Below, in pieces: positions 4,791 to 23,720 of a DNA stretch of 40,026 bases. The stretch lies in sequence record SRR2962707_1517; one strand, written 5' to 3'. The first letter of the stretch is position 1. Each line of letters starts with the position of its first letter. The notes below the pieces were generated by a model. It was not told where the DNA came from. It saw nothing but the letters and a program-made list of their open reading frames with translations, and searched no databases. The translations under genes were made by a program, and so were the position numbers.

Positions 4791-4795
4791 TTTTT

Positions 4796-6165: not shown

Positions 6166-7645
6166 GACAATCCCGGACATGGCCGCCAAGCGAGCCGAAA
6201 TATCGCCCAGCGCCACCGCCTTTGTCGATGCCGGCAGCGGGCGGGTCTGGCAGTTCCGCCAGATCAACGATGCCGCCAATGCCGTTGCTGCAGGTCTGGG
6301 GCGGGCCGGTTTGTCTCGCGGTGATCGCCTCGCAATCCTGTGTCTCAATCGGGTCGAATTCTTCATCACGCTTTTTGCCTGCCAGAAAGCCGGCATCATC
6401 CTGTGCCCGCTCAACTGGCGGCAACCGGCGCCCGAACTGGTTGAAACACTCGAGCCGGTGGGGGCGAAGGCGCTGATCCATGATGCGGCGCAAGCCGAAC
6501 CGGCAGGGGACGTGGCGCGCGCTTGCAGGCTTGGGACATTCGCCATCGAAACCGATATCGCCGCCTGGATTGCGGCAGGGGCAACAGTGCCCGTTGCGGA
6601 GACTATTCTCCCGGAGCAGCCCTGGTATCTGCTGTTCACATCGGGGACGACAGGGCGACCCAAGGCGGTGATCCAGACGGCGCAGATGGCCTGGGCCAAC
6701 GCTGTCAATATTTCCCATGCGACGCGGATGACTGCGGATGACAGCTCGGTCAATTTCCTCCCGCTGTTTCACACCGCCGGAATCAACCTTTACACGCTGC
6801 CGCTGTTTCTCATCGGCGGCTCGTCGACGATTCTGCCGAAGTTCGAACCGGCGCAGATCTTTGATCTTCTCAAACAGGGCAGGATCACCCAGTTTTTCGG
6901 TGTGCCGGCGATATATCAGGCTTTCAGCCTGTTGCCAGATGTTGGCGAGATCGACTGGAAGGCAATCCGCTGCGGCTGTGGCGGTGCGCCCTTGCCGGAA
7001 CCGTTGATCCGGTTTTTCGCAGGTCTGGGCGCCAGGGTGCTCAATGGCATGGGCATGACCGAAACCGGACCAACCGTCTTTTTGATGGATCCGGAAAATG
7101 CCGAGCGCAAGATCGGCTCCGTCGGACGGGCGCAGATGCTGACAGAGATGCGGCTTGATGGGGTTGTCGCCGGAGAGCCGGGTTCGGGCGAGATTCAGCT
7201 CAGGGGGCCCAATATCACGCCGGGATATTTCCAGAACGAGAACGCCACCCGCGACGCTTTCACCCGTGATGGATGGCTCAGGACGGGTGACATAGGACGG
7301 CGAGATGAGAACGGCTACATCTTCATCGTTGACCGGATCAAAGACATGTACATTTCAGGCGGTGAGAATGTCTATCCGGCCGAAGTCGAGCGTGTGCTCA
7401 ACGAGCATGCCGATGTGCTTGAAGCGGCGGTGATCAGCATGCCGGACCCAAAATGGGGCGAAGTCGGTGCGGCCTTCATCATCGCCCGGCCCGGCGCGAA
7501 GCTTGACCCGGCCGAGCTGAGAAGCTGGAGCCGGGAACGGATGGCGGCCTACAAGGTTCCCGTCAGGATTACGGTCGTTGAGGATTTTCCGCGTACCGCA
7601 GCCGGCAAGGTTCGCAAACTGGAGCTGAGGTCGATGCTGCCATGA
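6158..7645 (+). CDS. Acyl-CoA synthetase / AMP-binding ligase
   Basis: LLFTSGTTGRPKAV, LPLFH, GMGMTET, GWLRTGDIG, VDRIKDMYISGGENVYPAEVE, PRTAAGKV. GTG start with GGAGG RBS. Confidence 0.93.
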   Translation: MFETIPDMAAKRAEISPSATAFVDAGSGRVWQFRQINDAANAVAAGLGRAGLSRGDRLAILCLNRVEFFITLFACQKAGIILCPLNWRQPAPELVETLEPVGAKALIHDAAQAEPAGDVARACRLGTFAIETDIAAWIAAGATVPVAETILPEQPWYLLFTSGTTGRPKAVIQTAQMAWANAVNISHATRMTADDSSVNFLPLFHTAGINLYTLPLFLIGGSSTILPKFEPAQIFDLLKQGRITQFFGVPAIYQAFSLLPDVGEIDWKAIRCGCGGAPLPEPLIRFFAGLGARVLNGMGMTETGPTVFLMDPENAERKIGSVGRAQMLTEMRLDGVVAGEPGSGEIQLRGPNITPGYFQNENATRDAFTRDGWLRTGDIGRRDENGYIFIVDRIKDMYISGGENVYPAEVERVLNEHADVLEAAVISMPDPKWGEVGAAFIIARPGAKLDPAELRSWSRERMAAYKVPVRITVVEDFPRTAAGKVRKLELRSMLP

Positions 7646-7998
7646 ACATTGAACTTTCGATGCAATGGATGCCGAGCCAGGATGAGTTCGATCTGTTTGC
7701 GCAGATATCCGGTGATGACAACCCGATCCATGTCGATCCGGATTTCTCGGCCCGAACCGCTTTCGGGCGGACGGTCAGCCACGGCATGCTGATCTACGCC
7801 AAGCTGTGGGGACTGCTCACGGCCTCGCACCCGGACGTGGTGCAAAAGGGGCAGACGATGATGTTTCCCAACCCCTGTTACACCGGCGAGCCGGTCGATA
7901 TGCTGATCAGCGGGGAATGTCCGGGAACGCTCACCATGCGGGCTGTCAGGTCGGTTGATGGCGCGGAGCTTCTGGTCGGCGAAACGGAGGTTGCGTGA
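7642..7998 (+). CDS. MaoC/PhaJ-type (R)-specific enoyl-CoA hydratase, catalytic hotdog subunit
   Basis: FAQISGDDNPIHVD...FGRTVSHGML hydratase-2 motif with the Asp/His dyad. Confidence 0.88.
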   Translation: MNIELSMQWMPSQDEFDLFAQISGDDNPIHVDPDFSARTAFGRTVSHGMLIYAKLWGLLTASHPDVVQKGQTMMFPNPCYTGEPVDMLISGECPGTLTMRAVRSVDGAELLVGETEVA

Positions 7999-8354
7999 TG
8001 CAAGTGGGACAGTCAGCCACCGTCAGCCGCAGCTACAGCCGTGCCGATCTGGAAGGGTTTGCCCTGCTCAGCGGCTCAGAAGTTCCCGAGACCATCCCGG
8101 AGCCACTGATTGCCGCACTGTTTTCCTACCTGCTCGGCGTCGAACTTCCAGGGCCAGGCACGAACTATCTCAAGCAGGAACTGAAGTTTCTTGCTGCGGC
8201 GTCTCCCGACATCGAACTGACTGCGAAAGTCGAGATCACAAGATTGAGGCCAGACAAGCATCTGGTCGATCTCTGGTCGACCTGCACCGACGCCGATGGC
8301 GTGCTGATCTGCGAAGGCCGTTCGCTGGTCAAGGCAAAGGACGTCGCGGCGTAG
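7995..8354 (+). CDS. MaoC-like hotdog protein lacking the catalytic DxNPxH segment
   Basis: VGQSATVSRSYSRADLEGFALLSG and LLGVELPGPGTNYLKQELKF match the PhaJ fold; the DNPxH loop is absent. Start overlaps the upstream stop (GTG 7995, or ATG 7998). Confidence 0.78.
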   Translation: MMQVGQSATVSRSYSRADLEGFALLSGSEVPETIPEPLIAALFSYLLGVELPGPGTNYLKQELKFLAAASPDIELTAKVEITRLRPDKHLVDLWSTCTDADGVLICEGRSLVKAKDVAA

Positions 8355-8386
8355 TTTCACCTGCTGCATGATTGTTTGGAAAAAAT

Positions 8387-9148
8387 CTAGATCCGGAGGG
8401 CGAATTCCAGGAACCTGTCGGCAAAAGCCTCGGGTTCTTCCAGGTGTGGAGAATGTCCGGAAGCCTCGAACACATGCATTTCGCCTCGCGGAGCTGTATT
8501 GGCCAGCCACGCGGCGGCCGAAGCGGGATAGACCCGGCTGCGTGCGCCGCAGGTTGCCAGTAGCGGGCAGGGCATCCGGCCAATGAGCGACCTTTGATCC
8601 ATCCGGACAAGAGCCTTCCACATAGCAATCATTTTTGCCGGATCGTTGCTGAGGATCTGGGCGAGGGCATCCTGTCGGGAATAGCCCGGGGCTCCGTCGC
8701 GGTGGCCAAACATTGTCGTCGCGATTGCCTCCGCCATGCCGTGCCAGTCCGTCATCATGCGTTCTGTGGTGATGGTGAGATCGTCTTCGCTCTGCCCGAT
8801 TAAACCGTGCGGCCAGTTCGGTTTGCAAGCGAGCCTGGGGCTCATGTCGACCGTCATCAGGCCGGCCAGCCGGTCTGATCCAAATTGCTCGATGAACTGC
8901 CAGGCTACGGCAGCCCCCATTGACCAGCCAACCAGAACGACCTCGTTGAGATCATGTGTCTCAAGCAGATCTGCGAGCGTTTGTGCCGCGGACTCAAGCG
9001 AGGGTTCGGTTGCCGCCAACTTGCCGTGCCCCGGCAGATCAGGGGCGTAACAGTCAAGCTCCGCTGGCAATCTGGCAACGAGATCATCGAAAATCGACCC
9101 GCGCATGGTCCAGCCGTGCAACAGTACCACCGGTCGTGATCGGGGCAT
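8387..9148 (-). CDS. Alpha/beta-fold hydrolase (esterase-like)
   Basis: VLLHGW, PDLPGHG, GWSMG nucleophile elbow, SGHSPHLEEP catalytic His. Start is ATG 9148 or TTG 9166. Confidence 0.9.
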   Translation of the reverse strand: MPRSRPVVLLHGWTMRGSIFDDLVARLPAELDCYAPDLPGHGKLAATEPSLESAAQTLADLLETHDLNEVVLVGWSMGAAVAWQFIEQFGSDRLAGLMTVDMSPRLACKPNWPHGLIGQSEDDLTITTERMMTDWHGMAEAIATTMFGHRDGAPGYSRQDALAQILSNDPAKMIAMWKALVRMDQRSLIGRMPCPLLATCGARSRVYPASAAAWLANTAPRGEMHVFEASGHSPHLEEPEAFADRFLEFALRI

Positions 9149-9162
9149 GGTCTGCGCGCCCG

Positions 9163-10215
9163 TCAATCCTCTGACCTTAACCGTCCGACAATCCCTGTGG
9201 GAAAGAAGTAGACACTTAGGATGAACAGCACGCCGAGCCACAACAACCAGCGGTCGGGATCAAGCAATTGCGGAATGAACGGCAACCCCTCGGTCGCACC
9301 GGAGGCGACACCCATCAGGTTCTGCAGATAGTTCTGCGCCAGCACGAAAATCGTGACGCCAATCACCGCGCCATACATCGTTCCCATGCCGCCGATCACC
9401 ACCATCAACAAAATGTCGAGCATGATCTCGAACGACAGCGTTGTGGCCGGGCCGACATAGCGCAACCAGATGGCAAACAGGCTTCCGGCAAGAGCTGCCA
9501 CTGCAGCCGACAGGCAGGTGGCAAGCGTCCGGTAGAAAACCACACGGTAGCCGATCGCCTCGGCGCGGAAATCATTTTCCCGGATTGCCTTCAATACCCG
9601 TCCAAAAGGGGAATTGACGATCCTGAGCAGCAGCAGGAACAGGGCCAGCGAGGCGAAGAACACGAGGTAGTAATTCAGCAGCTTGCCGGTGATGCTTACC
9701 CCGAACAGTTTGCCGAGCCGGAAGGCAGGCGTCAGTTCGCGCGGGATCGAGTAATTCAGGCCATCCTCACCGCCGGTCAGGCCCGAAAGCTGGCTGACAA
9801 GCACTGCCACGGCAGAAGCCACGGCAAGCGTGATCATGGCAAAGAAGATCGCCCGGACCCGCAGCGAAAACAGCCCGATCAGCAATGCGAGCAGGGCGGC
9901 GGCAATGGCTCCGGAAATGGTGCCGACGATCAATGCATCGTACCCCCGGCCCATGTGGGTGGAGGCCAGTGCCACACCATAGGCGCCGAGGCCAAAGAAC
10001 ATGGTGTGGGCGAAGCTGACAATGCCTGAATATCCGAGCAGCAAATCATAGCTCGCCACAAGCACGATGAAGATGCAGATTCGTGCTGCGGTTTCGAGCG
10101 AGCGGACGCCGGGGAACAGGAACGGCGCAAAGGCCAGTCCGGCAAGAATGGCGAGCAGCAGGATTGTCAGGATCAGAGAGCGCGGGCGGTCGCCGGAAAG
10201 GATGTTTGTCAGCAT
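9163..10215 (-). CDS. HAAT (Liv-type) ABC transporter permease, LivM-like
   Basis: DLLLGYSGIVSFAHTMFFGLGAY, LTGGEDG, SPFGRVLKAIREN, VIGGMGT; many TM segments. Confidence 0.92.
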   Translation of the reverse strand: MLTNILSGDRPRSLILTILLLAILAGLAFAPFLFPGVRSLETAARICIFIVLVASYDLLLGYSGIVSFAHTMFFGLGAYGVALASTHMGRGYDALIVGTISGAIAAALLALLIGLFSLRVRAIFFAMITLAVASAVAVLVSQLSGLTGGEDGLNYSIPRELTPAFRLGKLFGVSITGKLLNYYLVFFASLALFLLLLRIVNSPFGRVLKAIRENDFRAEAIGYRVVFYRTLATCLSAAVAALAGSLFAIWLRYVGPATTLSFEIMLDILLMVVIGGMGTMYGAVIGVTIFVLAQNYLQNLMGVASGATEGLPFIPQLLDPDRWLLWLGVLFILSVYFFPTGIVGRLRSED

Positions 10216-10216
10216 C

Positions 10217-11248
10217 TTACTTCGCCTTCACAACGGGCATCATGCCTTGCGGCCGCCACATCAGGATGGCCGTCATCAGCGCGATGTTGGAGATCAACGC
10301 CAGCTTGGGTTCGAGAAACGCCACGTAGTTCTGCAGCAGCCCGACCAGCAGCGCGCCGATGAAGGCTCCCTCGACCGAGCCGAGGCCGCCGATGATGACT
10401 ACAATAAAGACCAGGATCATCATTTCCTCGCCCATGCCAGCGGTGATGACTTCCTGGTAGAGCCCCCACATCACGCCACCGAGACCAGCGAGCGCTGAAC
10501 CGGCGATGAAAACGCCGATGAACACCAATTTCAGACGATAGCCCAGCGCCTCGACCATTTCGCCGTTCTGTACACCGGCCCGGACGATCAGTCCGATCTT
10601 GGTGCGCTTGAGAACCAGCCGCATCGCCACGAACAGCGCCAGTCCGACGACCACTGCCAGCAACCGGTATTTTTCGATCGCGGCACCGGCAAAGGTGACG
10701 GCGCCTTTGAGTGTTTCGGGCCGGGTGAGATAGATCTCGTCGGGGCCCCAGATGACCTGGATCAGCTGTTCGATGACGATGAGGCCGCCGACTGTCACCA
10801 GGATCTGCTTGAGATGCGCGCCATAGACCGGCCGAACGATCACCCGTTCAAAGCCCCAGCCCAGCGCGCCGGTGACGCACATGGCGGCAACCACCGCAGC
10901 CATCACCGCCGCCACATTGAGGATCAGCGATGGTGCCCCGGTCCAGCCCTCAAGCGCCAGCAGCGCCGATATGCCGACATAGGCGCCCACCGAGATGAAG
11001 GCGCCATGGCCGAAATTGATCACGTCCATGAGGCCGAAGACGAGTGTCAACCCGGAGGCCATGATGAAGATCATCATCCCCATTGCCAGGCCGGAAACCG
11101 TCAGTGTGAGCCAGCTCGATGTCGAGCCGATCGACAGGAACCCAAGCACCACCAGGACAGGAACCAGCAGCAACGGCATCATTTTGCCGATGCTGTCTGT
11201 GAGCGAGAGTTGCGCGTATTTCGGCGCGTGATCGGGTGCGGCAGCCAT
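10217..11248 (-). CDS. HAAT (Liv-type) ABC transporter permease, LivH-like
   Basis: GLTLVFGLMDVINFGHG, TKIGLIVRAG, VIIGGLGSVEGA, RPQG. Confidence 0.92.
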   Translation of the reverse strand: MAAAPDHAPKYAQLSLTDSIGKMMPLLLVPVLVVLGFLSIGSTSSWLTLTVSGLAMGMMIFIMASGLTLVFGLMDVINFGHGAFISVGAYVGISALLALEGWTGAPSLILNVAAVMAAVVAAMCVTGALGWGFERVIVRPVYGAHLKQILVTVGGLIVIEQLIQVIWGPDEIYLTRPETLKGAVTFAGAAIEKYRLLAVVVGLALFVAMRLVLKRTKIGLIVRAGVQNGEMVEALGYRLKLVFIGVFIAGSALAGLGGVMWGLYQEVITAGMGEEMMILVFIVVIIGGLGSVEGAFIGALLVGLLQNYVAFLEPKLALISNIALMTAILMWRPQGMMPVVKAK

Positions 11249-11249
11249 A

Positions 11250-11972
11250 TCAATGCGCCTCCATGCTCAGGCCCATCAGGCGTTCCTGCAGCGTTGCGTC
11301 CCGGGCGAGCTCGGCCATTTCTCCGGCCCAGACGATCCGGCCGTCATCCATCACAGCTGCGGTGTCGCCGAGCGCCTTGGCGACAGCAAAATTCTGTTCG
11401 ACCAGCAGGATCGAAGCGCCTTTGTTCTTCAGATCCCGAAGTGCGCCTGCCATGGTCGAGATGATCGCCGGCGCCAAGCCCTTGGTCGGTTCATCAATCA
11501 GGTAGAGCTGCCGCTCTTCGGCCATGGCGCGGGCAATGGACAGCATCTGCTTCTGGCCCCCGGACAGATTGCCCGCCTCGGATCGCCAGAAAGTGCGCAA
11601 GGGCGGGAAGGTTTCGAAAATCCATTCTAGGCGGGCCGGATCGAGCGGACCGGAGGCTGCCGCGAGTATCATGTTTTCTTCCACCGTCAGGTCGGAAAAA
11701 ATGCCCATGTCCTCAGGCACGAAGCCGATACCGGCGCGGGCCCGGGCAGGGGTCGGCATGGTGGTGATGTCAGTGCCGTTGAAATGAAGGCTGCCGGTTT
11801 TCGCCTGCCAGTGTCCGATGATGGTGCGCAGCGTCGTGGTCTTGCCGACGCCGTTGCGGCCCAGAAGCATGGTCACGCCGCCGCGCGGCACGGTGAGCTC
11901 AACGCCTTGCAGGATGTGATACTGCGCAATGTCGGTGTGAATGCCGGAGAGTTCGAGGATCGGATCAGACAT
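11250..11972 (-). CDS. HAAT ABC transporter ATP-binding protein, LivF-like
   Basis: GRNGVGKTT Walker A, LSGGQKQML, LIDEPTKGLAP, LVEQN. Start at MSDPILEL. Confidence 0.93.
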   Translation of the reverse strand: MSDPILELSGIHTDIAQYHILQGVELTVPRGGVTMLLGRNGVGKTTTLRTIIGHWQAKTGSLHFNGTDITTMPTPARARAGIGFVPEDMGIFSDLTVEENMILAAASGPLDPARLEWIFETFPPLRTFWRSEAGNLSGGQKQMLSIARAMAEERQLYLIDEPTKGLAPAIISTMAGALRDLKNKGASILLVEQNFAVAKALGDTAAVMDDGRIVWAGEMAELARDATLQERLMGLSMEAH

Positions 11973-12729
11973 CGGCGAGGTCCCGTCCCATATAGGCTTC
12001 CTGCACAACGTCCGAGGCCATGACCGTGAACGGGTCGCCGTCGGCTGCAAGTTCGCCGTTGTGCAAAACAATGATGCGGTCGGCGAGCGAGCGGATGACA
12101 TCCATCTTGTGCTCGACCAGCAGGATCGTCCGCTCGGTATCGGCCTTGAGTTCGGCAATCAGGTCGAGCACCAGCGGGGCTTCGTCAACACTCATGCCGG
12201 CGGTTGGCTCGTCAAACATGTAAACGGCAGGCTCGAGTGCGATCAGGATGGCCACCTCCAGCTTGCGCTGGTTGCCATGGCTTAGTCCGCCAACCTTCTG
12301 TTCGCTCAGGTTCTGGAGGCGAACCCGGTCCAGAATGGCCATGGCAGCGACCGTCAATTCGGTGTGCGCACTTGCCATGGAGAACAGGTTGAAGCCCATC
12401 CTGCGCCGGGCCTGGATGACCAGTCGGACATTTTCAAGAACCGTGAGATCGGGAAACAGATTGGTCAACTGGAAGGCGCGACCCAGCCCCTTGTGGCAGC
12501 GCGTGGCCACAGGGTCGCGGGTCACATCTTCGCCCATCAGCCGCACGGTTCCTGCGGAAGCCGTGATCTGACCGGAAATCAGATTGAAATAGGTTGTCTT
12601 GCCTGCGCCATTTGGACCGACGATCGCGGTCAGCTCGCCGGCGCGAAAGCCGCAGGTCACCGCGTCCACTGCCACATGGCCGCCAAAGCGGACCGTCAGC
12701 CCGTCTGTTTCCAGAAGCATCTGTGTCAT
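11965..12729 (-). CDS. HAAT ABC transporter ATP-binding protein, LivG-like
   Basis: GPNGAGKTT, LSHGNQRKLE, FDEPTAGM, VEHKM, VQEAYMG. Start at MTQMLL. Confidence 0.93.
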   Translation of the reverse strand: MTQMLLETDGLTVRFGGHVAVDAVTCGFRAGELTAIVGPNGAGKTTYFNLISGQITASAGTVRLMGEDVTRDPVATRCHKGLGRAFQLTNLFPDLTVLENVRLVIQARRRMGFNLFSMASAHTELTVAAMAILDRVRLQNLSEQKVGGLSHGNQRKLEVAILIALEPAVYMFDEPTAGMSVDEAPLVLDLIAELKADTERTILLVEHKMDVIRSLADRIIVLHNGELAADGDPFTVMASDVVQEAYMGRDLADV

Positions 12730-12760
12730 GGCGCACCTGTGAAGGAGAAGGGTGGGGAAG

Positions 12761-12784
12761 GCGGGCGCCATGGCTGACGCCCGC
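12761..12784 (-). other. Intercistronic stem-loop after the binding-protein gene
   Basis: Minus strand GCGGGCGTCA-GCCA-TGGCGCCCGC; typical position for an mRNA-stabilising hairpin in ABC operons. Confidence 0.55.
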
Positions 12785-12795
12785 GGTCTGAAGCA

Positions 12796-13974
12796 TCAGT
12801 TGCGGACTGGAATGTCCATATCGTCGATGCCGATCTCACGCACCAGAACCGGTACGCCATAATCCTTGCCGTCCTGGATTTCGGTGCGGAAATGATACAT
12901 CGACTGCAGCGCCTGGTGGTCTTCCTTGCGGAAGCGCATCAGGCCCTTCGGTGTCTCCCATTCCATGCCTTCCATCGCGGTGATCAGGGCCTCGGTGTCG
13001 GTGGAGCCTGCCTTCTTGATGGCTTCGACCACGGCAATGCCGGCTGCCATGCCACCTGCGGTGAAGAAATCCGGAGGCGAGCCAAAGCGATTCATGTGCT
13101 CCTTGACCAGCCAGTCATTGACCGGGTTTTTGGGGATTTCGTAGTAGTAGTAGGTCGCACCCTCCATGCCCGGCAGTTCCTTGTAGGCCTTCAGCGCCGC
13201 CAGGATGTTGCCACCTGTGGCAATCTCGATGCCGAAGCGCGACGGGTCCATGGCATTGATCTTGCCCATCGGATTGCCGCCGCCGGCCCAGATGATGAAC
13301 AGCTTCTTCTTGCCTTCAATGTCGCCCATGGCGTTGAAGATGCGCTCCGCCGCCGCGGTAAAGTCTGTCGTGTCGGTCGGCACATATTCTTCGTGGGCAA
13401 TCTTGGCGCCCGAACTGGCCAGTGCATCCCGGAAGGCAGCTACGCCATCGCGTCCGAAAGCGTAGTCCTGAGCCAGGGTTGTGATCGTCACGCCCTCGCC
13501 ACCCAAAGCCACCGCATTGGAAATGGCGTCCTGGGAAGAATTGCGCCCGGTGCGGAAGATGAACCGGTTCCAGTTTTCTCCGGTGATTGAGTCTGCCACT
13601 GCAGGTTCCACGATCAGGATCTTCTCGTATTCCTCGGCAACCGGAAGCATCGCCAGGGCCACGCCTGAGCTTACTGGTCCGACGGCGATGTCAGCCTCAT
13701 CATCGCCATAGGCTTCAGCCAGCACAGCCTTGCCTATGTCGGGCTTGATCTGGGTGTCTTTTTCGATCACGACGATCTTGTCGCCATTGATCTCCATGGT
13801 GCCGCCGGTGGCATATTCCAGGCCGAGCATCAGCCCGGTGTGCGACTGGGCCGCATAGGCCTCAAGCGCTCCGGTTTTCCCATACACATGGGCAACGCGG
13901 ATGTCATCGGCAATCGCCGGAGCAGCCAGCATGATGGCTGCTGCCCCTGTTGCTAACATCGTCTTCATCTTCAT
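12796..13974 (-). CDS. HAAT ABC transporter periplasmic substrate-binding protein
   Basis: Sec signal MKMKTMLATGAAAIMLAAPAIA-DD, type 1 PBP features (GPVSSGVALA, NRFIFRTG, DYAFGRDG, TPKG). GGAGGAG RBS upstream of ATG 13974. Confidence 0.92.
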   Translation of the reverse strand: MKMKTMLATGAAAIMLAAPAIADDIRVAHVYGKTGALEAYAAQSHTGLMLGLEYATGGTMEINGDKIVVIEKDTQIKPDIGKAVLAEAYGDDEADIAVGPVSSGVALAMLPVAEEYEKILIVEPAVADSITGENWNRFIFRTGRNSSQDAISNAVALGGEGVTITTLAQDYAFGRDGVAAFRDALASSGAKIAHEEYVPTDTTDFTAAAERIFNAMGDIEGKKKLFIIWAGGGNPMGKINAMDPSRFGIEIATGGNILAALKAYKELPGMEGATYYYYEIPKNPVNDWLVKEHMNRFGSPPDFFTAGGMAAGIAVVEAIKKAGSTDTEALITAMEGMEWETPKGLMRFRKEDHQALQSMYHFRTEIQDGKDYGVPVLVREIGIDDMDIPVRN

Positions 13975-14017
13975 TTCGGGTCTCCTCCCTGAGCGAACAA
14001 CGGTGAAAACATGAAAC

Positions 14018-14038
14018 ATGAATCAATATTCATGTCAA
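14018..14038 (-). promoter_or_regulatory. Putative TetR operator (copy 2) abutting a consensus -35 of the ABC operon promoter
   Basis: ATGAAT-CAAT-ATTCAT at 14018-14033; minus-strand TTGACA at 14038-14033 overlaps its edge. Confidence 0.75.
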
Positions 14039-14337: not shown

Positions 14338-14623
14338 GACCCCAGTCCAAAAGAGTGCGTTTTCATATTTTAAGCTTGAAGTGAATAGAAAGCTGTGTGA
14401 GCTTTCGTTTCAGACGCTGCGGTTGGAGTTGACGTGACGAATGGGCGCTACAGTCAAAATATTTGCGTATGCATGCAATCGCTCTCGCATGGCCGATTGC
14501 CAGAGCAGGGCAAGCCGGTGCGACGCGGTTGGGGTTCGGCTGTTTGATGTGCTGCAGGTGCCGATTGGCGCAACGACGGTTTTACCCGGTAAATGATCAA
14601 TTGTGTTTTCCAGGATGGATAGA

Positions 14624-15700
14624 ATGAAGATTGTTGTAATCGGTGGTGGTAACGGATCCTACGCGGCGGCAGCAGATTTTGCCGAGGCGGGTCACAATGT
14701 GCGCTGGTGGCGGCGCAACGCCAGTGACTTTGCGGACGTGACGAAGGCCGGCGGCATTGTCGTGACCGATTTCAAAGGCAGCCGGCCGGTTAAACTGGTG
14801 CCGACCGATGATCTGGCTGCCGCGATGGCAGGCGCCGAACTGATTGTTGCGCCTACGCCTGCCAACGCCCAGGCGGATATTGCCGACAAGCTGGCTCCCC
14901 ATATGGCTGACGGGCAGGTGATTTTTCTGCCACCGGGCACATTCGGATCCTACATCATGATGAAGCGGATGCGCGACGCAGGTTGTACCGCTGATTTCGC
15001 CATTGCCGAAACCGGTACGCTGCCTTGGCTGACGCGCAAGCAGAGCCAGACCGAGGTTCGGATTTCGACCCGCGCTTCCCGGCTGCCAACCGGTGTGCTG
15101 CCCGCGCGCAAGACCGATGAAGCCATTGCCATTATTGCGCAGGCCTTCCCGGATGCAATCGAGCCCATCGAGGACGCACTGTCGGGCGCGCTTATGAACG
15201 CCGGCCCGATTATCCATCCGCCGCTGATCATGATGAATGCTGGGCCGATTGAGCATTTCGAACGCTGGGACATTCACAACGAGGGCACCCAGCCTGCCAT
15301 TCGCCGGGTCCACACGGCGCTCGACAACGAACGCATCGCCATCCGCGAGGCGCTTGGTTATGGCGCGCCGCATTTCCCTCTTGCCGATCACTACGAGACG
15401 AGCAACTGGATGTATGGCAATCTGGCGCATGACAAGCTGGTTGGCTCCGGCGACTGGCACGAACATCTGGATCTCAAGACCCACCGTTATATGCAGGAAG
15501 ACATCGGCCTCGGCCTTGCTTTTCTGGTGTCGGTCGGGGAGTGGGTCGGGGTGCCTTGTCCGGTGGCGCAGGGGCTTCTGGCGGTGGCCGAAGCGGTCTC
15601 GGAGTGTGATTTCCGCAAGGATGGCAGGACCATGACGACGGTCGGGCTGGCGGACCAGGATCAGGCTTCGGTACAAACCATGCTGCGCGAGGGGCTGTGA
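14624..15700 (+). CDS. NAD/NADP-dependent octopine/nopaline (opine) dehydrogenase family protein
   Basis: KIVVIGGGNG Rossmann motif, AETGTLPW, LMNAGPIIHP, LDNERIAIREALG, HRYMQEDIGLGL. Confidence 0.88.
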   Translation: MKIVVIGGGNGSYAAAADFAEAGHNVRWWRRNASDFADVTKAGGIVVTDFKGSRPVKLVPTDDLAAAMAGAELIVAPTPANAQADIADKLAPHMADGQVIFLPPGTFGSYIMMKRMRDAGCTADFAIAETGTLPWLTRKQSQTEVRISTRASRLPTGVLPARKTDEAIAIIAQAFPDAIEPIEDALSGALMNAGPIIHPPLIMMNAGPIEHFERWDIHNEGTQPAIRRVHTALDNERIAIREALGYGAPHFPLADHYETSNWMYGNLAHDKLVGSGDWHEHLDLKTHRYMQEDIGLGLAFLVSVGEWVGVPCPVAQGLLAVAEAVSECDFRKDGRTMTTVGLADQDQASVQTMLREGL

Positions 15701-16692
15701 TGAGCGCCCGGCCTGCCATCGCCTGTATTGGCGCCGGCCGGATGGGGCGCGGCATTGCGCACAGCGTCGCCTATGCCGGACATCGGGCTGTGCTGGTGGA
15801 TGCCAAGGACCGCAGCGCGGAAGATTTCGCCCGGCTGAGCACCGAGGCTCTGGCTGAAATCAAGGGTGGCCTGGCTTCGGTGGCTGCGCTGGGAGCCTTT
15901 GATGCTGCCGCCATTCCCGCGATCATGGATCGCATCAGCGTCTACAGCCTGGCCGACGCTGATCAGGGGATTGCGGGTTGCGAGATCGTCTTTGAGGCGG
16001 TGCCTGAGGTGCTGGACGCCAAACGCGATGCGTTCGCGCTGTTTGACGCCCATGCCGATGATGACGCGATCCTTGCGTCAACCACGTCCACCATCCTGTC
16101 GACTGAACTCTCCGGGCTGACACAGCGCCCGGAAAATTTTCTCAACGCCCACTGGCTCAATCCTGCCTTTCTGATGCCGCTGATCGAACTCAGCCCAAGC
16201 GATGTGACGACCGAGCGGACGCTCAGCCGTTTGCGTGGACTGCTTGAAGCCATGGGCAAGGTGCCGATCGTCTGCAAGGCTTCACCCGGCTACATCGTTC
16301 CGCGTATTCAGGCGCTTGCCATGAACGAGGCGGCACGTCTGGTCGAAGAGGGCGTGGCAAGCGCCGAGGATGTCGACAAGGCCGTGAAATACGGCTTCGG
16401 GCTTCGCTTCGGTGTTCTGGGGTTGCTGGAATTCATCGACTGGGGCGGGGGCGATATTCTGTATTACGCCAGCAATTATCTGCGCGAGGCTTTTGACGAT
16501 GAGCGCTTCAAGGCGCCTGATGTCATCGTGCAGAACATGAAGGAAGGCCGTATCGGCCTCAAGACCGGTTCAGGATTCTTCGACTATTCCGAAATGGATG
16601 TCGAAGCTTACCGCCAACGCCGCATGGCGGATTTTCTAAAGGCATTGAAGGGAGCCGGAATGACAAGAGGTCCGGTTCTCGACGATCACTGA
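15697..16692 (+). CDS. 3-hydroxyacyl-CoA dehydrogenase family protein
   Basis: IGAGRMGRGIA, FEAVPEVLDAK, ASTTS, HWLNPA...LIE (His-Glu dyad), PGYIVPR, MNEAARLVEEGVAS, GLKTGSGFFDY. Confidence 0.9.
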   Translation: MMSARPAIACIGAGRMGRGIAHSVAYAGHRAVLVDAKDRSAEDFARLSTEALAEIKGGLASVAALGAFDAAAIPAIMDRISVYSLADADQGIAGCEIVFEAVPEVLDAKRDAFALFDAHADDDAILASTTSTILSTELSGLTQRPENFLNAHWLNPAFLMPLIELSPSDVTTERTLSRLRGLLEAMGKVPIVCKASPGYIVPRIQALAMNEAARLVEEGVASAEDVDKAVKYGFGLRFGVLGLLEFIDWGGGDILYYASNYLREAFDDERFKAPDVIVQNMKEGRIGLKTGSGFFDYSEMDVEAYRQRRMADFLKALKGAGMTRGPVLDDH

Positions 16693-16745
16693 CGGCAGCT
16701 TAAAACGGAAGCGATAATTCCGTGCAACCAGAGGAGAATGTAGCA

Positions 16746-17756
16746 ATGAAAAATTCAAACCATCCTGGCCGGCGCATTGCCGGCATGGCCGTGTCGGGCA
16801 CCGCACTGGCGCTTGTTTTCATGGCAAGCACTGCCAACGCCGAAGAAACCCTGCGCGCGATTTCGGCATTTCCGAAGCCGTTGGCTTTTTCGCAGAGCTT
16901 TCAGGGCTTTGCCGATCTCGTCAATGAGAAGGGCAAGGGTGTCATCAAGATTGATTATGTTGGCGGACCGGAGATGTTCCCGTCCAACCAGCAGGTTGAT
17001 GCGGTGCGCCGTGGCGTGATTGACATGCAGTATGGCCCGGCGTCCTATTATCTCGGCACTATGCCCGAAGCAGACGCCTGGGTCGGTTCGACCGTGTCGG
17101 CGATGGAAGCGCGCGCCAATGGCGGTTTCGCGACCATGCAGAAGGCTTTCTCCGAAAAGCTCGGCGTCAATCTGCTTGCTCATCTCGATACCGGCATTCA
17201 GTTTCACGTCTATACGATCGATGAACCCAAGCGCACTGAAGATGGCGGCGTCGATCTCGATGGTTTGCGCATCCGCTCGCAGCCGATCTACAACTCGTTC
17301 TTTGAATCGCTTGGTGCGATCCCGGTCTCGGTGCCGGTGCCGGATGTCTACACCGGCCTCGAACGCCACACCTTCGACGGCTCGGGCTGGCCGATCATCG
17401 CTATCAAGGACCTGTCATGGGACAAGTTCCTGCGTTTCCGGATTGATCCCGGTTTCTTCCAGACCGACCTTGCCGTCGTCATCAATCCGGCGAAGTGGGA
17501 TGCGCTTAGCGATGAGGCCAAGACCATCATCAACGAGGCGGCCGTCGAGTATGAGCAGACGTCCTATGATAATTTCCAGAAGATGATTGCTGAAACGGAC
17601 AAGGCCGTCCGCGATGAAGGCATGCAGGTGATCACACTGGAAGGCGATGCCGCAAACAAGTATCTTGACGGTGCCTTTGAGAGCGCATGGAAGCGGATGA
17701 AGGATGCCGGGTCGGAGCATTACGATGCGCTCCGCAAGGCCTATTACAACCGCTGA
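16746..17756 (+). CDS. dctP: TRAP transporter substrate-binding protein DctP
   Basis: Signal peptide ending ANA-EE; DLDGLRIR with conserved Arg; LGAIPVSVPVPDVYTGLERHTFDG; KWDALS. GAGGAG RBS. Confidence 0.92.
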   Translation: MKNSNHPGRRIAGMAVSGTALALVFMASTANAEETLRAISAFPKPLAFSQSFQGFADLVNEKGKGVIKIDYVGGPEMFPSNQQVDAVRRGVIDMQYGPASYYLGTMPEADAWVGSTVSAMEARANGGFATMQKAFSEKLGVNLLAHLDTGIQFHVYTIDEPKRTEDGGVDLDGLRIRSQPIYNSFFESLGAIPVSVPVPDVYTGLERHTFDGSGWPIIAIKDLSWDKFLRFRIDPGFFQTDLAVVINPAKWDALSDEAKTIINEAAVEYEQTSYDNFQKMIAETDKAVRDEGMQVITLEGDAANKYLDGAFESAWKRMKDAGSEHYDALRKAYYNR

Positions 17757-17764
17757 TGATCCCA

Positions 17765-17795
17765 GCCGGCGGATGCTGTTGTTGTGTCCGCCGGC
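17765..17795 (+). other. Intercistronic stem-loop between dctP and dctQ
   Basis: GCCGGCGGATGC-N7-GTGTCCGCCGGC, 12-bp stem with G-U pairs. Confidence 0.55.
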
Positions 17796-17819
17796 CCTTT
17801 TGGCCACAATGGAGCACTC

Positions 17820-18314
17820 ATGCTTGCGCGTTTCTATGACAGGGTAATCACCGGTCTGGCGGTGACCGGTGGCATTAGCCTGGTCATCATCACCATCGCC
17901 ATCATTATTGATGTTGTCTTGCGCAACACAGGCTTCCGCCCGTCGCAATCGACGAGTGCGCTGGTCGAATATGTCATGCTTTATTCAACCATGGCTGCGG
18001 CCCCCTGGCTGGTGCGCAAGAACGGGCATGTGGCGATTACCTCCTTTATCGAGCGCCTACCGCAGAGGCTCCGCTTTCTGGCCGGTCGCGCAGTACTCAT
18101 CCTGTGCATCTTCGTGCTGGGGCTTTTGTCCTGGCGGTCCAGTGCGGTTGGTCTGGAGATGGTCGCGGCAGGATCGGTGGACATGCGTTCGATCAATATT
18201 CCCTCTTGGGTTCTCTACGCCATGCTGGCGGGCGGGTTCGGGCTGATGACGCTTGAATTTTTGCGCATGCTGCTGCGCGGCAATATCTATACCGGCAACG
18301 AGGCAAGCCATTGA
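17820..18314 (+). CDS. dctQ: TRAP transporter small permease DctQ
   Basis: Four TM segments, DVVLR, VEYVML, GHVAI; located between dctP and dctM. GGAG RBS. Confidence 0.88.
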   Translation: MLARFYDRVITGLAVTGGISLVIITIAIIIDVVLRNTGFRPSQSTSALVEYVMLYSTMAAAPWLVRKNGHVAITSFIERLPQRLRFLAGRAVLILCIFVLGLLSWRSSAVGLEMVAAGSVDMRSINIPSWVLYAMLAGGFGLMTLEFLRMLLRGNIYTGNEASH

Positions 18315-18345
18315 CCCGGCCCCATTATCCTGAATCGAGACGACC

Positions 18346-19665
18346 ATGATGCCGTGGTATGAAGCAGCCGGCCTGATGGTCGGCGGCCTGTTGTTCCTGA
18401 TGCTTTTCGGAACGCCGGTGGCGATCGCGTTCCTCGCCATCAATGTTGTCGGTGTCTATCTGTTCATGGGCGGTCTGGTTGGCGTCGACCAACTGGTTGC
18501 CAACGCCACCACCTCAGTCACCAGCTTTGCGCTGGTGCCTGTCCCGCTGTTCCTGATCATGGGCGAGTTGCTGTTTCACACAGGCCTTGCCGTGCGGGTG
18601 TTCGATGCGCTCGACAAGTGCTTCGGCGGCATCAAGGGACGGCTGTCCTACCTGACGGTTGGTGGCGGCACCATATTTGCCACCCTGTCCGGCTCGTCGA
18701 TGGCCAATACGGCGATGCTCGGCACCACGCTGATGCCCGACATGATCAAGCGCGGCTACAAGCCGAAGATGATCATGGGGCCGATCCTGGCGACCGGTGG
18801 TCTGGCGATGATCATTCCGCCATCCTCGCTGGCGGTGCTGCTGGGTTCGCTGGCGCGGATCGATGTCGGCGCACTGCTGATTGCGGGACTGGTGCCCGGG
18901 TTGGTGCTGGCGCTGATGTTTGCGGCGACGATCCGGCTACAGATCGCGCTCGATCCCGATGCCGCGCCCGGCTACGCCGCCGAGCGCGCCACATTCGGCG
19001 AAATAATCTACGCCATTACCACCGACATTCTGCCAATGGGCCTTGTCATCTTCGCAGCGGTCGGCCTGATCCTGCTCGGCTGGGCGACGCCGACGGAATC
19101 GGCGGCATTCGGCACGCTGGCAGTCGCTATCCTGGCGGCAATTTACGGGAAGCTGACCTGGGCGGCGATCATTGCGGCGATGAAAGGCACGCTCATGGTC
19201 TCGGCCATGATGCTGATGATCATTGTTGGTTCCACCACTTTCTCGCAGATCCTGGCCTTCTCCGGGGCGTCAACCGGGCTGATCTCCTACGCCATGAGCT
19301 TCGATTTCGGCTTCTATGCCATTCTGGCACTGATGTTCCTCGTGCTCATCATTCTCGGCATGTTCATGGATCAGCTCTCGATCATGATGCTGACACTGCC
19401 GATCTTCATGCCGCTTGCCTCCAGCTATGGCTTCGATCCGATCTGGTTCGGCGTGATCATGCTGCTGGCGCTGGAGCTGAGCCTTGCGACGCCACCCTTC
19501 GGACTGTTGCTGTTTGTCATGGTGGGTGTCAGCCCGCCCGGCACCACCATCGGTCAGGTGGCCTGGGCTGCGGCGCCCTATATCGCCTGCACGCTATTGC
19601 TGGTGCTTATTCTTGCAGTGTTCCCGGAGCTGGCGCTTTGGCTGCCGGGTTTGATGAGGAGTTAG
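18346..19665 (+). CDS. dctM: TRAP transporter large permease DctM
   Basis: VPLFLIMGELL, SGSSMA, IIPPS, ATPTES, DPIWFGV, TPPFGLLLFV. Confidence 0.94.
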   Translation: MMPWYEAAGLMVGGLLFLMLFGTPVAIAFLAINVVGVYLFMGGLVGVDQLVANATTSVTSFALVPVPLFLIMGELLFHTGLAVRVFDALDKCFGGIKGRLSYLTVGGGTIFATLSGSSMANTAMLGTTLMPDMIKRGYKPKMIMGPILATGGLAMIIPPSSLAVLLGSLARIDVGALLIAGLVPGLVLALMFAATIRLQIALDPDAAPGYAAERATFGEIIYAITTDILPMGLVIFAAVGLILLGWATPTESAAFGTLAVAILAAIYGKLTWAAIIAAMKGTLMVSAMMLMIIVGSTTFSQILAFSGASTGLISYAMSFDFGFYAILALMFLVLIILGMFMDQLSIMMLTLPIFMPLASSYGFDPIWFGVIMLLALELSLATPPFGLLLFVMVGVSPPGTTIGQVAWAAAPYIACTLLLVLILAVFPELALWLPGLMRS

Positions 19666-19668
19666 ATC

Positions 19669-20442
19669 ATGAAGATCTGGTATCAGAGCTATGTCGATTA
19701 CGAGCACGGCGCCGAGTACTGGGATGAGTTGCGCAAGCATCTCGACAAGATCGTCGAGCCCGGCACCCAGATCGACATCAAGGGCATCACTCCGCACAAC
19801 AATTATGCCCATGCCATTGTCGAATTCCGCTGCGCCCGTGAGGTGATCTGCAACGCTGTGAAGGCCGAGCGCGAAGGCTATGATGCCTTTATCATCGGGC
19901 ATTTTCAGGATGCGGGGCTTTATGAAGCTCGTTCCGTGGTCGACATTCCAGTGCTCGGCATGGGCGAGGCGTCGATGCTGCATTCCTGCCAGCTAGGTCA
20001 GCGCTCGGGTATCGTCACCATCAACCGCCGTTTCATTCCGTGGTTCCATCACCAGATCGGCAAATACGGGTTGAAAGAGCGTGTCACAGGGGTTCACGCC
20101 ATGGACTTCGAGCCGGGCCAGATCCTCTCGGCCTTTGGCTCGGATGACCGGCTGGAAGAGGTCCGAGCGCTGTTTGAGGCGCAGGCGAAGCCGTTGGTTG
20201 AACAGGGTGTGGATGTGTTGATCCCGGGCGGCGGCATTCCGATGCTGCTGTTCTCGCAGCTCAATGATCACCGCGTTGATGGCGCACCGGTGATCAACGG
20301 CATCCCCATTGTCGTCAAGATGGCAGAAATGGCTGTGCGCCTGCGCGAACTGACCGGGCTCGGCATCAGCCGTACCTCCGATTACGTCAAGCCGCCGCTC
20401 GAGATCATCGAGGAATTCATGGCCCACCCTAAAGGGCTTTGA
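19669..20442 (+). CDS. Asp/Glu/hydantoin racemase-fold protein with non-canonical active site
   Basis: AEREGYDAFIIGHFQDAGLYEARSVVDIPVLGMGEAS and GVDVLIPGGG...PVING...VKMAEMAV follow the hydantoin racemase pattern. GAGGAG RBS. Confidence 0.85.
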   Translation: MKIWYQSYVDYEHGAEYWDELRKHLDKIVEPGTQIDIKGITPHNNYAHAIVEFRCAREVICNAVKAEREGYDAFIIGHFQDAGLYEARSVVDIPVLGMGEASMLHSCQLGQRSGIVTINRRFIPWFHHQIGKYGLKERVTGVHAMDFEPGQILSAFGSDDRLEEVRALFEAQAKPLVEQGVDVLIPGGGIPMLLFSQLNDHRVDGAPVINGIPIVVKMAEMAVRLRELTGLGISRTSDYVKPPLEIIEEFMAHPKGL

Positions 20443-20527: not shown

Positions 20528-20950
20528 TCAGGCCCTGTCGGCTGGTATGTTTTGCGAGAGCGGAAGGGCCCCGCCTCTTGCGTGAATGTTGCTCATGGCG
20601 ACCCGATCGACCAATCTATGGAGAATGTCTGTCAATTCATCGAAGTCGACCGGTTTGGAGATGCAGGTTGCTGCACCCGATATCTCGACAGGTATGGTCG
20701 ATGACCCGCCGCCAAACATGACAACCGGAATCCCCGAACGACGAAGCCCGGACACGAATTTCATGTCGAGAGGGTCGGGGTGCCTGAAATCGAACACCGC
20801 AGCATCGATATCTTGTCGAATTGAACAGAGGGCATAATCGCCCCGGGTTCTTGGTGAAACCGTAAAGCCGCGGCCCTCCAGCTCATAAAGCAGGTCGACA
20901 AGAAGCATCGGTTCGTCCGAGACAATCAGGATTTTTGGGCTCTCATTCAT
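20528..20950 (-). CDS. Single-domain response regulator (REC), atypical
   Basis: KILIVSDE, AAVFD (phosphoacceptor position), IPVVMFG, ISKP. AAGGAG RBS before ATG 20950. Confidence 0.75.
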   Translation of the reverse strand: MNESPKILIVSDEPMLLVDLLYELEGRGFTVSPRTRGDYALCSIRQDIDAAVFDFRHPDPLDMKFVSGLRRSGIPVVMFGGGSSTIPVEISGAATCISKPVDFDELTDILHRLVDRVAMSNIHARGGALPLSQNIPADRA

Positions 20951-21169
20951 ATGCACTCCTTAAAGGCTGCCACTTCGAAAATGCATGGCCAAAGTGCCGC
21001 TGATCGAACGCCGCAGGCGTATGACAGACAATGATACGAATAGAGCTCTGGATAAAGGCCACGGTTGCGCCGGGTGCATACACCACGTCGATGGCGTGCA
21101 ATGAGCCTCTTGCAATCTGTACATCAATTACTAACATAATGGCGGAAGCAGGGTTTTTGGGTCTACGAC

Positions 21170-21529: not shown

Positions 21530-21608
21530 ATTCGTGCTGGATGTGGGTATGCCTGTACCTCCCGGTACGACAGCCACTTCCGTTTTTCAGCAGGATTTGG
21601 AGAACGTC

Positions 21609-23720
21609 ATGGCGAAGAAAAACAGCGGTCAATCACAATCGGCGACTATCGGAGATCAGAAGTTACTGCGTGGGACCGGAGGAGAGCTGCACCAGACTGC
21701 CGGCGGCGACATTCCGACCCTGACAACACAGCAGGGTACTCCGGTTGCGGATGATCAGAACTCACTGAAAGCCGGACAACGCGGACCCACCCTCGTCGAA
21801 GATCAGCATTTCCGCGAAAAGATCTTCCATTTTGACCATGAGCGTATTCCCGAGCGTGTTGTTCATGCGCGCGGTTTTGGAGCCCACGGCTTTTTCGAAA
21901 CCTACGAATCGCTCTCGGACATTACCCGCGCGGACATTTTTCAGCGCAAAGGCGAGAAGACCGAACTGTTCGCCCGGTTTTCTACTGTTGCCGGGAACAA
22001 GGGCTCACCTGACCTGGCCCGCGACGTGCGCGGATTTGCGGTGAAATTCTACACCAAGGAAGGCAACTGGGATCTGGTTGGCAACAACATCCCGGTGTTC
22101 TTCATTCAGGACGCGATCAAGTTTCCCGACCTGATCCATTCAGCCAAGCAGGAGCCGGATCGCGGCTTCCCGCAGGCCCAGACGGCGCATGACAATTTCT
22201 GGGACTTCATTTCGCTGACGCCGGAGTCGATCAACATGGCGCTGTGGATCATGTCCGACCGCACCATCCCGCGCTCGCTGCGGTTCATGGAAGGGTTCGG
22301 CGTCCATACTTTCCGCATGGTCAACGCTGAAGGCAAATCGAGCTTCGTGAAGTTCCACTGGAAGCCGAAGCAGGGACTGCAGTCGGTAGTCTGGAACGAG
22401 GCGCTGAAATTGAATGGCGCCGATCCCGATTTCCACCGCCGCGACATGTGGGATTCCATCCAGATGGGCGACTACCCGGAATGGGAACTCGGGCTGCAGG
22501 TGTTTGATGACAAGTTTGCCGAAGAGTTCGAGTTCGACGTGCTTGACCCGACCAAGATCATCCCGGAGGAACAGGTCCCTGTGAGGATCGTTGGCCGGAT
22601 GGTTCTCAATCGCTGTGTCGACAATTTCTTTGCCGAGACCGAGCAGGTCGCTTTCCAGACAGGCAATCTGGTTCCAGGCATCGACTTTACCAACGATCCG
22701 CTTTTGCAGGGTCGCAACTTCTCCTATCTCGACACCCAGTTGAGCCGTCTCGGATCGACCAACTTCAACCATTTGCCGATCAACGCGCCACGCTGCCCGT
22801 TCCATCATTTCCAGCAGGACGGCCACATGGCCTTCCACAATCCGAAGGGACGGGCGAACTACGAACCCAATTCCTGGGGCAAGGATGGCGGTCCGCGTGA
22901 GAACCCGGAAAAGGGGTTCCAGTCCTATCCCGAAGATCTGGAAGGCGCAAAAGGCCGATACCGATCGGAGACGTTTGCCGATCATTATAGCCAGGCGCGG
23001 CAGTTCTACCTCTCGCAGACGCCCGTCGAGCAGGGCCATATCGCCGACGCTTTTGTCTTCGAGTTGTCAAAGGTGCAAACAACGGCCATCCGGGAACGTA
23101 TGGTTTCGCATTTGCTCAATGTTGAGGAGGATCTCGCCAAACAGGTTGCCGAGGGGCTGCGGCTGAAGTCGATGCCGAAGCCGGCGGACGCGGCGCGGCC
23201 GACGGTCACTGATCTGAAGGTTTCGGAAAAGCTATCCATCGTCCTCAACCGTCCGGGCAGCTTCAAGGGGCGGAAGCTTGGTGCGCTGGTTACCGACGGC
23301 GTGGACATAGATTTGGTGACTGCGCTCAAGAGCGCCATCGAGACCGAAGGTGCGCAGATCGAGTTCATCGCGCCGCAGGTCGGCGGCGTCGAAGCCAGTG
23401 ACGGTACCTGGATTGAAGCAGACGAAAAAATCGATGGTGGTCCGTCGCTTCTCTATGACGCGGTTGTCATTCTGGCGTCGAAAGACGGGGCATCTCAGCT
23501 TGCCAAACTGCCGCCGGCCCGTGACTTCGCCGCCGATGCCTTCGCGCATTGCAAGTTCATCGGTTACACTGAAGAGGTGCAGCCTTTGCTTGAGAAGGCC
23601 GGCATCTGGGCCGATCTCGACGACGGTTGCAAGGCGCTGTCGAAGAAGAGCGATGGCAAGGCATTCGTCGCGATGTGCCGCGACCTTCGCTTCTGGGAGC
23701 GCGAGGAAAAGCTCGGCTAG
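21609..23720 (+). CDS. katE: Monofunctional large-subunit catalase HPII
   Basis: [15 protein letters not shown] (distal His), [23 protein letters not shown] (proximal Tyr), C-terminal GATase/DJ-1-like domain. GGAGA RBS before MAKK. Confidence 0.96.

Follow-up and report, generated by a model that had tools for sequence, protein, structure and literature searches.

A six-gene operon with an opine-dehydrogenase-family protein, a hydroxyacyl-CoA-dehydrogenase-family protein and a TRAP importer, and its links to aromatic acid catabolism

Sequence record SRR2962707_1517 provides a stretch of 40,026 nucleotides (nt; hereafter the window), in which positions 14624-20442 hold six plus-strand genes according to the open reading frame (ORF) listing and Pfam and NCBIfam scans. 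In order, they encode an opine-dehydrogenase-family NAD(P) oxidoreductase (ODH), a 3-hydroxyacyl-coenzyme A (CoA)-dehydrogenase-family oxidoreductase (HCDH), the DctP, DctQ and DctM subunits of a tripartite ATP-independent periplasmic (TRAP) transporter, and a protein with the Asp/Glu/hydantoin-racemase fold (rac). The original prediction took this operon for a CoA-independent route that degrades an imported opine-like carboxylate. We favor, at slightly better than even odds (about 55%), an accessory uptake and oxidoreductase module of tryptophan- or auxin-linked aromatic acid catabolism and no opine route: relatives of the operon lie inside clusters for auxin and anthranilate breakdown, which makes a tryptophan-derived aromatic acid the most likely substrate, and not an opine.

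The six genes and their protein families

The operon is compact, and its description as six co-oriented, tightly packed genes was accurate down to the coordinates. The genes for ODH (14624..15700, 358 aa) and HCDH (15697..16692, 331 aa) overlap by 4 nt, and gaps of 29, 27, 31 and 3 nt then precede DctP (16722..17756), the small membrane subunit DctQ (17784..18314), the large membrane subunit DctM (18346..19665) and rac (19669..20442, 257 aa). The longest ODH ORF begins with a GTG at 14603; we prefer the ATG at 14624 because homologues are 358 aa long and a conserved AGGATGGATAGAATG lies just upstream. The same six-gene order is found in 14 of 80 related loci, from Hoeflea, Nitratireductor, Mesorhizobium, a Rhodobacteraceae bacterium and Prosthecomicrobium, and this recurrence argues that the arrangement is not due to chance. 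The related loci are the best 80 of 272 ODH relatives, taken from one-genome-per-species contigs with which the window proteins were compared by tblastn. The window itself is Hoeflea-like, with an ODH 92-96% identical to those of seven Hoeflea loci.

Within the operon, the first two genes form the constant part. HCDH lies directly 3' of ODH in 74 of the 80 loci (tblastn). Four of the six loci that have no HCDH match are cut by contig ends (L001, L019, L034 and L059), and two (L028 and L065) have downstream sequence. Counting all loci compared, there are 90 same-strand ODH-HCDH pairs, 73 of them with a gap of at most 17 nt. In our sample of 301 alphaproteobacterial genomes, on which all genome-level counts below are based, ODH occurs in 16 genomes, HCDH in 16 and both in 15. 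Given this adjacency and co-occurrence, ODH and HCDH behave as an obligate pair and appear to be translationally coupled. The TRAP genes and rac accompany the pair often, though not always: orthologous TRAP genes follow the pair in 17 of the 80 loci, and a rac orthologue of at least 68% identity is present in 19 (tblastn with the window proteins). Co-conservation in other genomes, which the original prediction had proposed as a check, is thus borne out both for the pair and for the full order.

A single locus has the two genes in one frame. In Bradyrhizobium oligotrophicum, a 742-aa ORF (L053:7851-10079) carries the domain sets of both ODH and HCDH, and could be a real fusion or the product of a lost stop codon. 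We dropped it as support for a physical ODH-HCDH complex, since one fused pair in 90 is too rare.

ODH belongs to the two-domain opine dehydrogenase family, matching PF02317 with 100 bits (cut-off 30) and carrying a PF01210 N-terminal domain. Its best solved relative is 1bg6, N-(1-D-carboxyethyl)-L-norvaline dehydrogenase (CENDH; E = 4.6e-35 over 349 residues). In the alignment, H198, R288 and D293 of ODH correspond to H202, R292 and D297 of 1bg6, and all three are invariant in 31 orthologues. We take the His and Asp to be the catalytic pair and the Arg to be the residue that binds the 2-oxo acid, as in CENDH and octopine dehydrogenase (OcDH). The invariant Arg of opine dehydrogenases binds a free alpha-carboxylate. 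Because this His/Arg/Asp site is kept, the group on which ODH works is probably still a C=O or C=N adjacent to a free alpha-carboxylate.

HCDH matches PF02737 (149 bits) and PF00725 (82 bits), and passes the NCBIfam model NF006125, named '3-hydroxybutyryl-CoA dehydrogenase', with 480 bits against a cut-off of 427. The 31 orthologues all keep S131, H152 and E164, with 12 residues of spacing between the His and the Glu; the Ser and the His-Glu dyad are presumably the catalytic residues, with the spacing of human 3-hydroxyacyl-CoA dehydrogenase (HAD). Among the PDB matches of HCDH are FHMPC dehydrogenase and lambda-crystallin, family members that act on free acids.

The three consecutive genes that follow encode a TRAP importer, with matches to PF03480 (DctP), PF04290 (DctQ, 78 bits) and PF06808 (DctM, 235 bits). 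Against TIGR00786, DctM scores 255 bits, below the cut-off of 268. The closest solved relative of DctP is 4mnc/4mni (E = 1e-50, ~300 residues), which a published supplement gives as Bpro_4736 with bound benzoylformic acid (PMC10443332). Weaker solved relatives bind picolinate and other aromatic acids. We assume that the Arg of the DctP I-R motif serves carboxylate binding. From these similarities, DctP is predicted to belong to an aromatic-carboxylate-binding lineage.

The last gene was originally described as encoding a racemase-fold protein. The fold stands: rac matches PF01177 with 90 bits (cut-off 31), and its best solved relatives are the hydantoin/allantoin racemases 3qvk/3qvj/5lfd (E = 2.7e-14). 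The name 'racemase' is doubtful, however, because both catalytic cysteines are missing. His78 and a Gly occupy the Cys positions of 3qvj, and this replacement is conserved in 13 orthologues, in which a GHFQD motif is also invariant; judged by these residues, a two-thiol racemase mechanism appears excluded. A protein atlas search returned only family-level names for rac. In the loci of identical gene order, rac is the best-conserved protein of the cluster, 80-98% identical and above ODH and HCDH there.

Genomic context and co-occurrence in relatives

The iad route of auxin breakdown reportedly leads from indole-3-acetic acid (IAA) to anthranilate, with dioxindole-3-acetate, dioxindole, isatin and isatinic acid as intermediates (PMC9613470; bioRxiv 10.1101/2025.10.25.684584). 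Among the 32 related loci with an ODH identity of at least 64%, 21 have one or more iad core markers within 8 kb, the marker types near the pair in the closer relatives being IadD, IorAB and MarR. The Rieske subunit adjoining the pair in Breoghania (L020) matches Variovorax IadD closely (9o71_A, E = 3e-176; 7yls_B, E = 9.5e-176). On a Paracoccus saliphilus plasmid, MarR and a first TRAP system precede a single-strand series of iadCDEFGHIJ-type genes (assigned by annotation and order), ODH, HCDH and DctPQM. An Azospirillum thermophilum plasmid carries MarR-ODH-HCDH-DctPQM-MarR with a divergent Liv-type ATP-binding cassette (ABC) transporter, as in the window, and an Acinetobacter plasmid carries AraC-ODH-HCDH-MarR followed by an apparent iac cluster, as judged by product names and gene order in the record. 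In two further loci (L018 and L021), the order is IorA, IorB, ODH, HCDH, MarR, ligase and cyclase. In Pseudooceanicola algae, ODH-HCDH-DctPQM is accompanied by a GntR regulator.

Alphaproteobacterial iad loci carry TRAP genes of their own: in L087 (a Paracoccus saliphilus plasmid) and L093 (Hoeflea genome G001), they stand beside MarR, where Variovorax has the ABC protein IadK. The Hoeflea iad-locus binding protein is closest to the mandelate binder 4p56 and the window DctP to 4mnc; these are therefore two distinct TRAP systems. The iad-locus TRAP (L087, L093), distinct from that of the window, is a candidate IAA importer.

More distant relatives, of a Bradyrhizobium type (L033-L080, ODH identity 59-62%), have iad markers in only 1 of 48 loci. 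Two of these loci (L048 and L053) encode an ACMR-like protein, an enoyl-CoA hydratase (ECH; NF006107), a short-chain dehydrogenase/reductase (SDR), an alpha/beta hydrolase, an acyl-CoA dehydrogenase (ACAD) and a CoA ligase, followed by ODH and HCDH, the CoA-ligase ORF overlapping the ODH start by a few nt. The ACMR-like protein is a bifunctional FAD-monooxygenase/old yellow enzyme (OYE) that scores 1131 bits (cut-off 1078) against NF006101, 'salicylyl-CoA 5-hydroxylase/oxidoreductase', which we take to represent the family of 2-aminobenzoyl-CoA monooxygenase/reductase (ACMR). For L018, such a protein was also confirmed upstream, and the MarR genes of the locus were confirmed as well.

These surroundings bear on the opine substrate that had been proposed. 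On that proposal, ODH would split an imported N-(carboxyalkyl) amino acid into an amino acid and a 2-oxo acid, with HCDH and rac processing the products and no CoA activation. ODH is a PF02317 protein whose closest homologue of solved structure is a true opine dehydrogenase and whose H198, R288 and D293 are invariant, and none of the six genes encodes a CoA-activating enzyme. Nine loci have a RidA-family (imine/enamine deaminase) gene directly 5' of ODH (L002, at 7624-8004; L005, L008, L009, L012, L013, L014, L028 and L032), and three (L023, L024 and L026) have an apparent Opp/Dpp-type SBP_bac_5 ABC transporter, Pfam-confirmed for L023 only; the SBP_bac_5 family includes some opine binders. 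Yet the annotated loci examined showed no opine oxidase, no occ/noc-type gene and no opine context of another kind. The neighbors are instead aromatic and aryl-CoA genes, the pair sits in iad, iac and aryl-CoA loci, the nearest solved relatives of DctP bind aromatic acids, and ODH is strongly linked to IorA and ACMR at the genome level (below). We therefore regard an opine route as quite improbable. In the window and in L004, L006 and L007, non-coding sequence takes the place of the RidA gene.

Genome-level counts place the pair within a wider set of functions. A split-type IorA orthologue (44 in all) is found in 15 of the 16 ODH-positive genomes and in 29 of the 285 ODH-negative ones; genome G245 enters the IorA background count only. 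Full-length ACMR (56 in all, after removal of three OYE-only matches in G133, G174 and G287) is present in 14/16 and 42/285, respectively, and an IadD orthologue of at least 60% identity (4 in all) in 2/16 and 2/285. ACMR accompanies IorA in 38 of the 44 IorA-positive genomes. The sets are thus nested, ODH-HCDH inside IorA and IorA mostly inside ACMR, as would be expected if they served successive feeder steps. By one-sided Fisher tests, p = 4e-13 for ODH with IorA and p = 1e-9 for ODH with ACMR, values that ignore shared ancestry and hence are not true probabilities.

All five operon-carrying Hoeflea genomes encode IadD, ACMR and IorA elsewhere. In G001, the iad locus comprises a different TRAP system, MarR, IadD, E, F, G, H and an SDR. 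A second locus (C2:254695-271079) has IorA ~12 kb from an ACMR cluster consisting of a cyclase, an Opp-type ABC transporter, two kynureninase-like genes, ACMR, ECH, ACAD, a CoA ligase and RidA. In Hoeflea, the pieces of the pathway are therefore present but scattered, the window operon being the third. The co-occurrence of IorA with ACMR and their proximity in Hoeflea suggest that the product of IadAB is an aroyl-CoA (2-aminobenzoyl-CoA from isatinate, for instance) rather than indoleacetyl-CoA.

A more direct part in the CoA-linked pathway can be envisaged, in which the pair supplies core enzymes of the lower 2-aminobenzoyl-CoA (or salicylyl-CoA) pathway: HCDH would oxidize the ACMR-derived hydroxyacyl-CoA, ODH would reduce or oxidize its enamine or imine function, and the TRAP transporter would import anthranilate. 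This would fit the NF006125 match of HCDH, the position of Bradyrhizobium-type pairs directly after CoA ligase and ACAD genes and near ECH and ACMR-like genes, the presence of ACMR in 14 of 16 ODH-positive genomes, and the Hoeflea ACMR cluster, which has ECH, ACAD, ligase and RidA genes while lacking an HCDH. However, the pair is absent from 42 of the 56 ACMR-positive genomes and so cannot be a core step there, and its linkage to IorA (15/16) is tighter than that to ACMR. A CoA thioester also lacks the free alpha-carboxylate that this Arg binds in opine dehydrogenases, and a transporter and regulator of its own often accompany the pair, as in a feeder module. We consider a core role unlikely.

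The link to IorAB could also point toward auxin itself. Imported indole-3-lactate, indole-3-pyruvate or D/L-tryptophan would then be converted to indole-3-pyruvate, from which IorAB would form indole-3-acetyl-CoA or IAA for the iad or iac pathway. IorAB carries the annotation indolepyruvate:ferredoxin oxidoreductase, the pair stands beside both iad and iac clusters, and a TRAP binding protein, Dde_0634, binds D-Trp, indole-3-pyruvate and IAA. The window DctP is distant from Dde_0634, though (4pgn, E = 7e-9), and IadD accompanies ODH in only 2 of 16 sampled genomes. Moreover, IorA tracks ACMR (38/44) and, in Hoeflea, lies in the ACMR/kynureninase locus, outside the iad locus. The odds of such a feeder are, in our estimate, very low.

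Sequences flanking the operon in the window

A near-palindrome, TTGCGTATGCATGCAA, lies at 14463..14478 on the plus strand, ~150 nt 5' of ODH, and is a candidate operator or promoter element. Of the 7 Hoeflea loci, 6 have a degenerate form of the TTGCGTATGCATGCAA motif upstream of the operon, and it is missing from all 103 other loci. The motif occurs once in the window; when up to 3 mismatches are allowed, 46 of 100 shuffled sequences contain one match or more. We rejected an operator common to the operon and the Hoeflea iad and ACMR loci, as the 14463-14478 palindrome is absent from L092-L094. A second inverted repeat lies at 14382-14412, and a scan for consensus promoters and terminators found no excess of sites over shuffles.

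Farther upstream, 6-10 kb from the operon, plus-strand genes at 4775-8354 encode TetR, an enoyl-CoA hydratase, a CoA ligase, a MaoC-like hydratase and a small ORF that has no Pfam match. They are followed on the minus strand (9163-14019) by a Liv-type ABC transporter, whose binding protein (12796-14019) is closest to the Rhodopseudomonas-type 3n0x/3nnd (E = 1e-171) and more distantly related to p-hydroxybenzoate, vanillate and nicotinate binders. By its gene content, the region 4775-14019 looks like a separate CoA-dependent aromatic-acid cluster. We rejected it as part of the operon, since it is conserved beside the operon only in L003, a close Hoeflea locus. Downstream are a stand-alone receiver-domain protein (20528-20956, minus strand; its PF00072 match is weak and falls short of the cut-off) and a large catalase HPII (21534-23720, plus strand), whose adjacency to the operon is conserved only in some Hoeflea loci.

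A proposed role and its relation to known systems

The pair, often together with TRAP and rac, sits in or travels with iad loci, IorAB and ACMR clusters. This nesting, the adjacency to IorAB, the benzoylformate-type DctP and the 2-oxo-acid site of ODH together suggest that the module yields or interconverts an aryl 2-oxo acid. The TRAP transporter would import an aromatic carboxylate with an oxo, hydroxy or amino group on its alpha carbon; NAD(P)-linked redox steps leading to the aryl 2-oxo acid would be catalyzed by ODH, using its Arg and His/Asp 2-oxo-acid site, and by HCDH, using its His-Glu dyad; IorAB, encoded elsewhere in the genome, would convert this acid to an aroyl-CoA; and the ACMR cluster would degrade the aroyl-CoA. 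In such a scheme, rac may be a non-canonical helper, an isomerase, decarboxylase or similar enzyme, and not a two-thiol racemase.

As a tentative suggestion, the substrates may be 2-aminomandelate or dioxindole-derived compounds and isatinate (2-aminophenylglyoxylate), which are known to occur late on the way from IAA to anthranilate. It is conceivable, if rather doubtful, that ODH-HCDH provides the oxidoreductase step from dioxindole or 2-aminomandelate to isatinate and that IorAB (IadAB) is an isatinate:ferredoxin oxidoreductase making 2-aminobenzoyl-CoA for ACMR. If ODH-HCDH did act before isatinate and IorAB after it, they would complete a CoA-linked route from IAA to central metabolism, and, by way of the TRAP transporter, Hoeflea and similar bacteria would be able to take up auxin or indole breakdown products that their neighbors release. 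Bacterial auxin destruction shapes root development and probably algal-bacterial signaling too. The module offers candidate genes for the steps after isatin or dioxindole, for the role of IadAB and for the lower 2-aminobenzoyl-CoA pathway. It also calls for caution in annotation, since the functional names 'opine dehydrogenase', '3-hydroxybutyryl-CoA dehydrogenase' and 'hydantoin racemase' are each probably mistaken here.

Several observations weigh against an accessory module of tryptophan- or auxin-linked catabolism. The 40-kb window holds no iad, IorAB or ACMR genes, with iadDE, iadAB and MarR all missing. Markers of iad are absent within 8 kb of the pair in the seven Hoeflea loci, which have no IorAB or ACMR gene nearby either, and in L019, L027, L031 and L032, Paraburkholderia has AraC-ODH-HCDH alone, and 15 sampled, more distant pairs have heterogeneous neighbors (amidases, amidohydrolases, ADP-forming CoA ligases and rhodanese). 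The pair is missing from most ACMR-positive genomes (42/56) and from 29 of the 44 IorA-positive ones, and is therefore dispensable for those pathways, while the scarcity of IadD among ODH-positive genomes (2/16) means that auxin is not a universal source. The full opine-dehydrogenase catalytic set of ODH makes a C-N substrate possible, a point to which the RidA genes before ODH add, and the match of HCDH to a CoA-ester enzyme model seems to sit awkwardly with free-acid substrates. The substrate is deduced from genomic context only, gene calls in the related loci come from a crude ORF picker based on GC content at third codon positions (GC3), the Fisher values carry the ancestry limit given above, and the control gene DhaK, present in 7 of 301 genomes, is too rare to calibrate the co-occurrence test.

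The original prediction had also called the operon CoA-independent and had not recognized its combination of genes as a described pathway. The first claim has evidence on both sides: a Pfam scan found no CoA ligase, CoA transferase or thiolase among the six genes, but HCDH passes a CoA-enzyme model, and the related loci and genomes are rich in CoA ligases, IorAB and ACMR. The second agrees with the literature searched, which contains no description of the combination. Full-text searches returned no paper on opine dehydrogenase together with 2-aminobenzoyl-CoA, the original Azoarcus evansii cluster report and bioRxiv supplements lying outside the search. The enzyme names combined with IAA, MarR or TRAP brought up nothing relevant, and 'opine', 'hydroxyacyl' and 'racemase' had no mention in the iad literature searched. 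Whether close homologues belong to a characterized pathway has a divided answer: they lie inside its loci but are absent from its described genes.

The proteins can be compared one by one with known systems. ODH shares the PF02317 two-domain architecture and the His/Arg/Asp positions of CENDH (1bg6) and the opine dehydrogenases, but the similarity is low, and the window-type enzyme is always paired with HCDH in a context of aromatic and aryl-CoA catabolism. Likewise, rac shares the Pfam family and a fold-level sequence match with hydantoin/allantoin racemases (HpxA, 3qvj; AllR, 5lfd) but has neither catalytic Cys, with His78 and Gly instead. For the importer, Bpro_4736 is the closest solved relative of DctP, and the Arg of the I-R motif is common to both.

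At the level of pathways, relatives of the operon hold IadD, IadA/B, IadC, IadE-J and MarR orthologues around the pair, as in the iad loci of Variovorax and Bradyrhizobium, and share with these a dedicated importer based on a solute-binding protein. By contrast, the Variovorax locus, as described, uses ABC binding proteins (IadK) and no TRAP transporter, and its published gene list (iadR and iadA-L) includes no ODH-, HCDH- or racemase-like gene (PMC12852158). The ODH-HCDH module is therefore an add-on to the iad pathway. It resembles the aerobic 2-aminobenzoyl-CoA pathway (ACMR; SdgC-type salicylyl-CoA 5-hydroxylase) in that Bradyrhizobium-type pairs lie in clusters of NF006101, CoA ligase, ECH and ACAD genes, and differs from it in that the window operon has no CoA-activating enzymes and most ACMR-positive genomes do without the pair. 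Within the literature searched, the module would be an undescribed accessory part of known aromatic catabolic networks.

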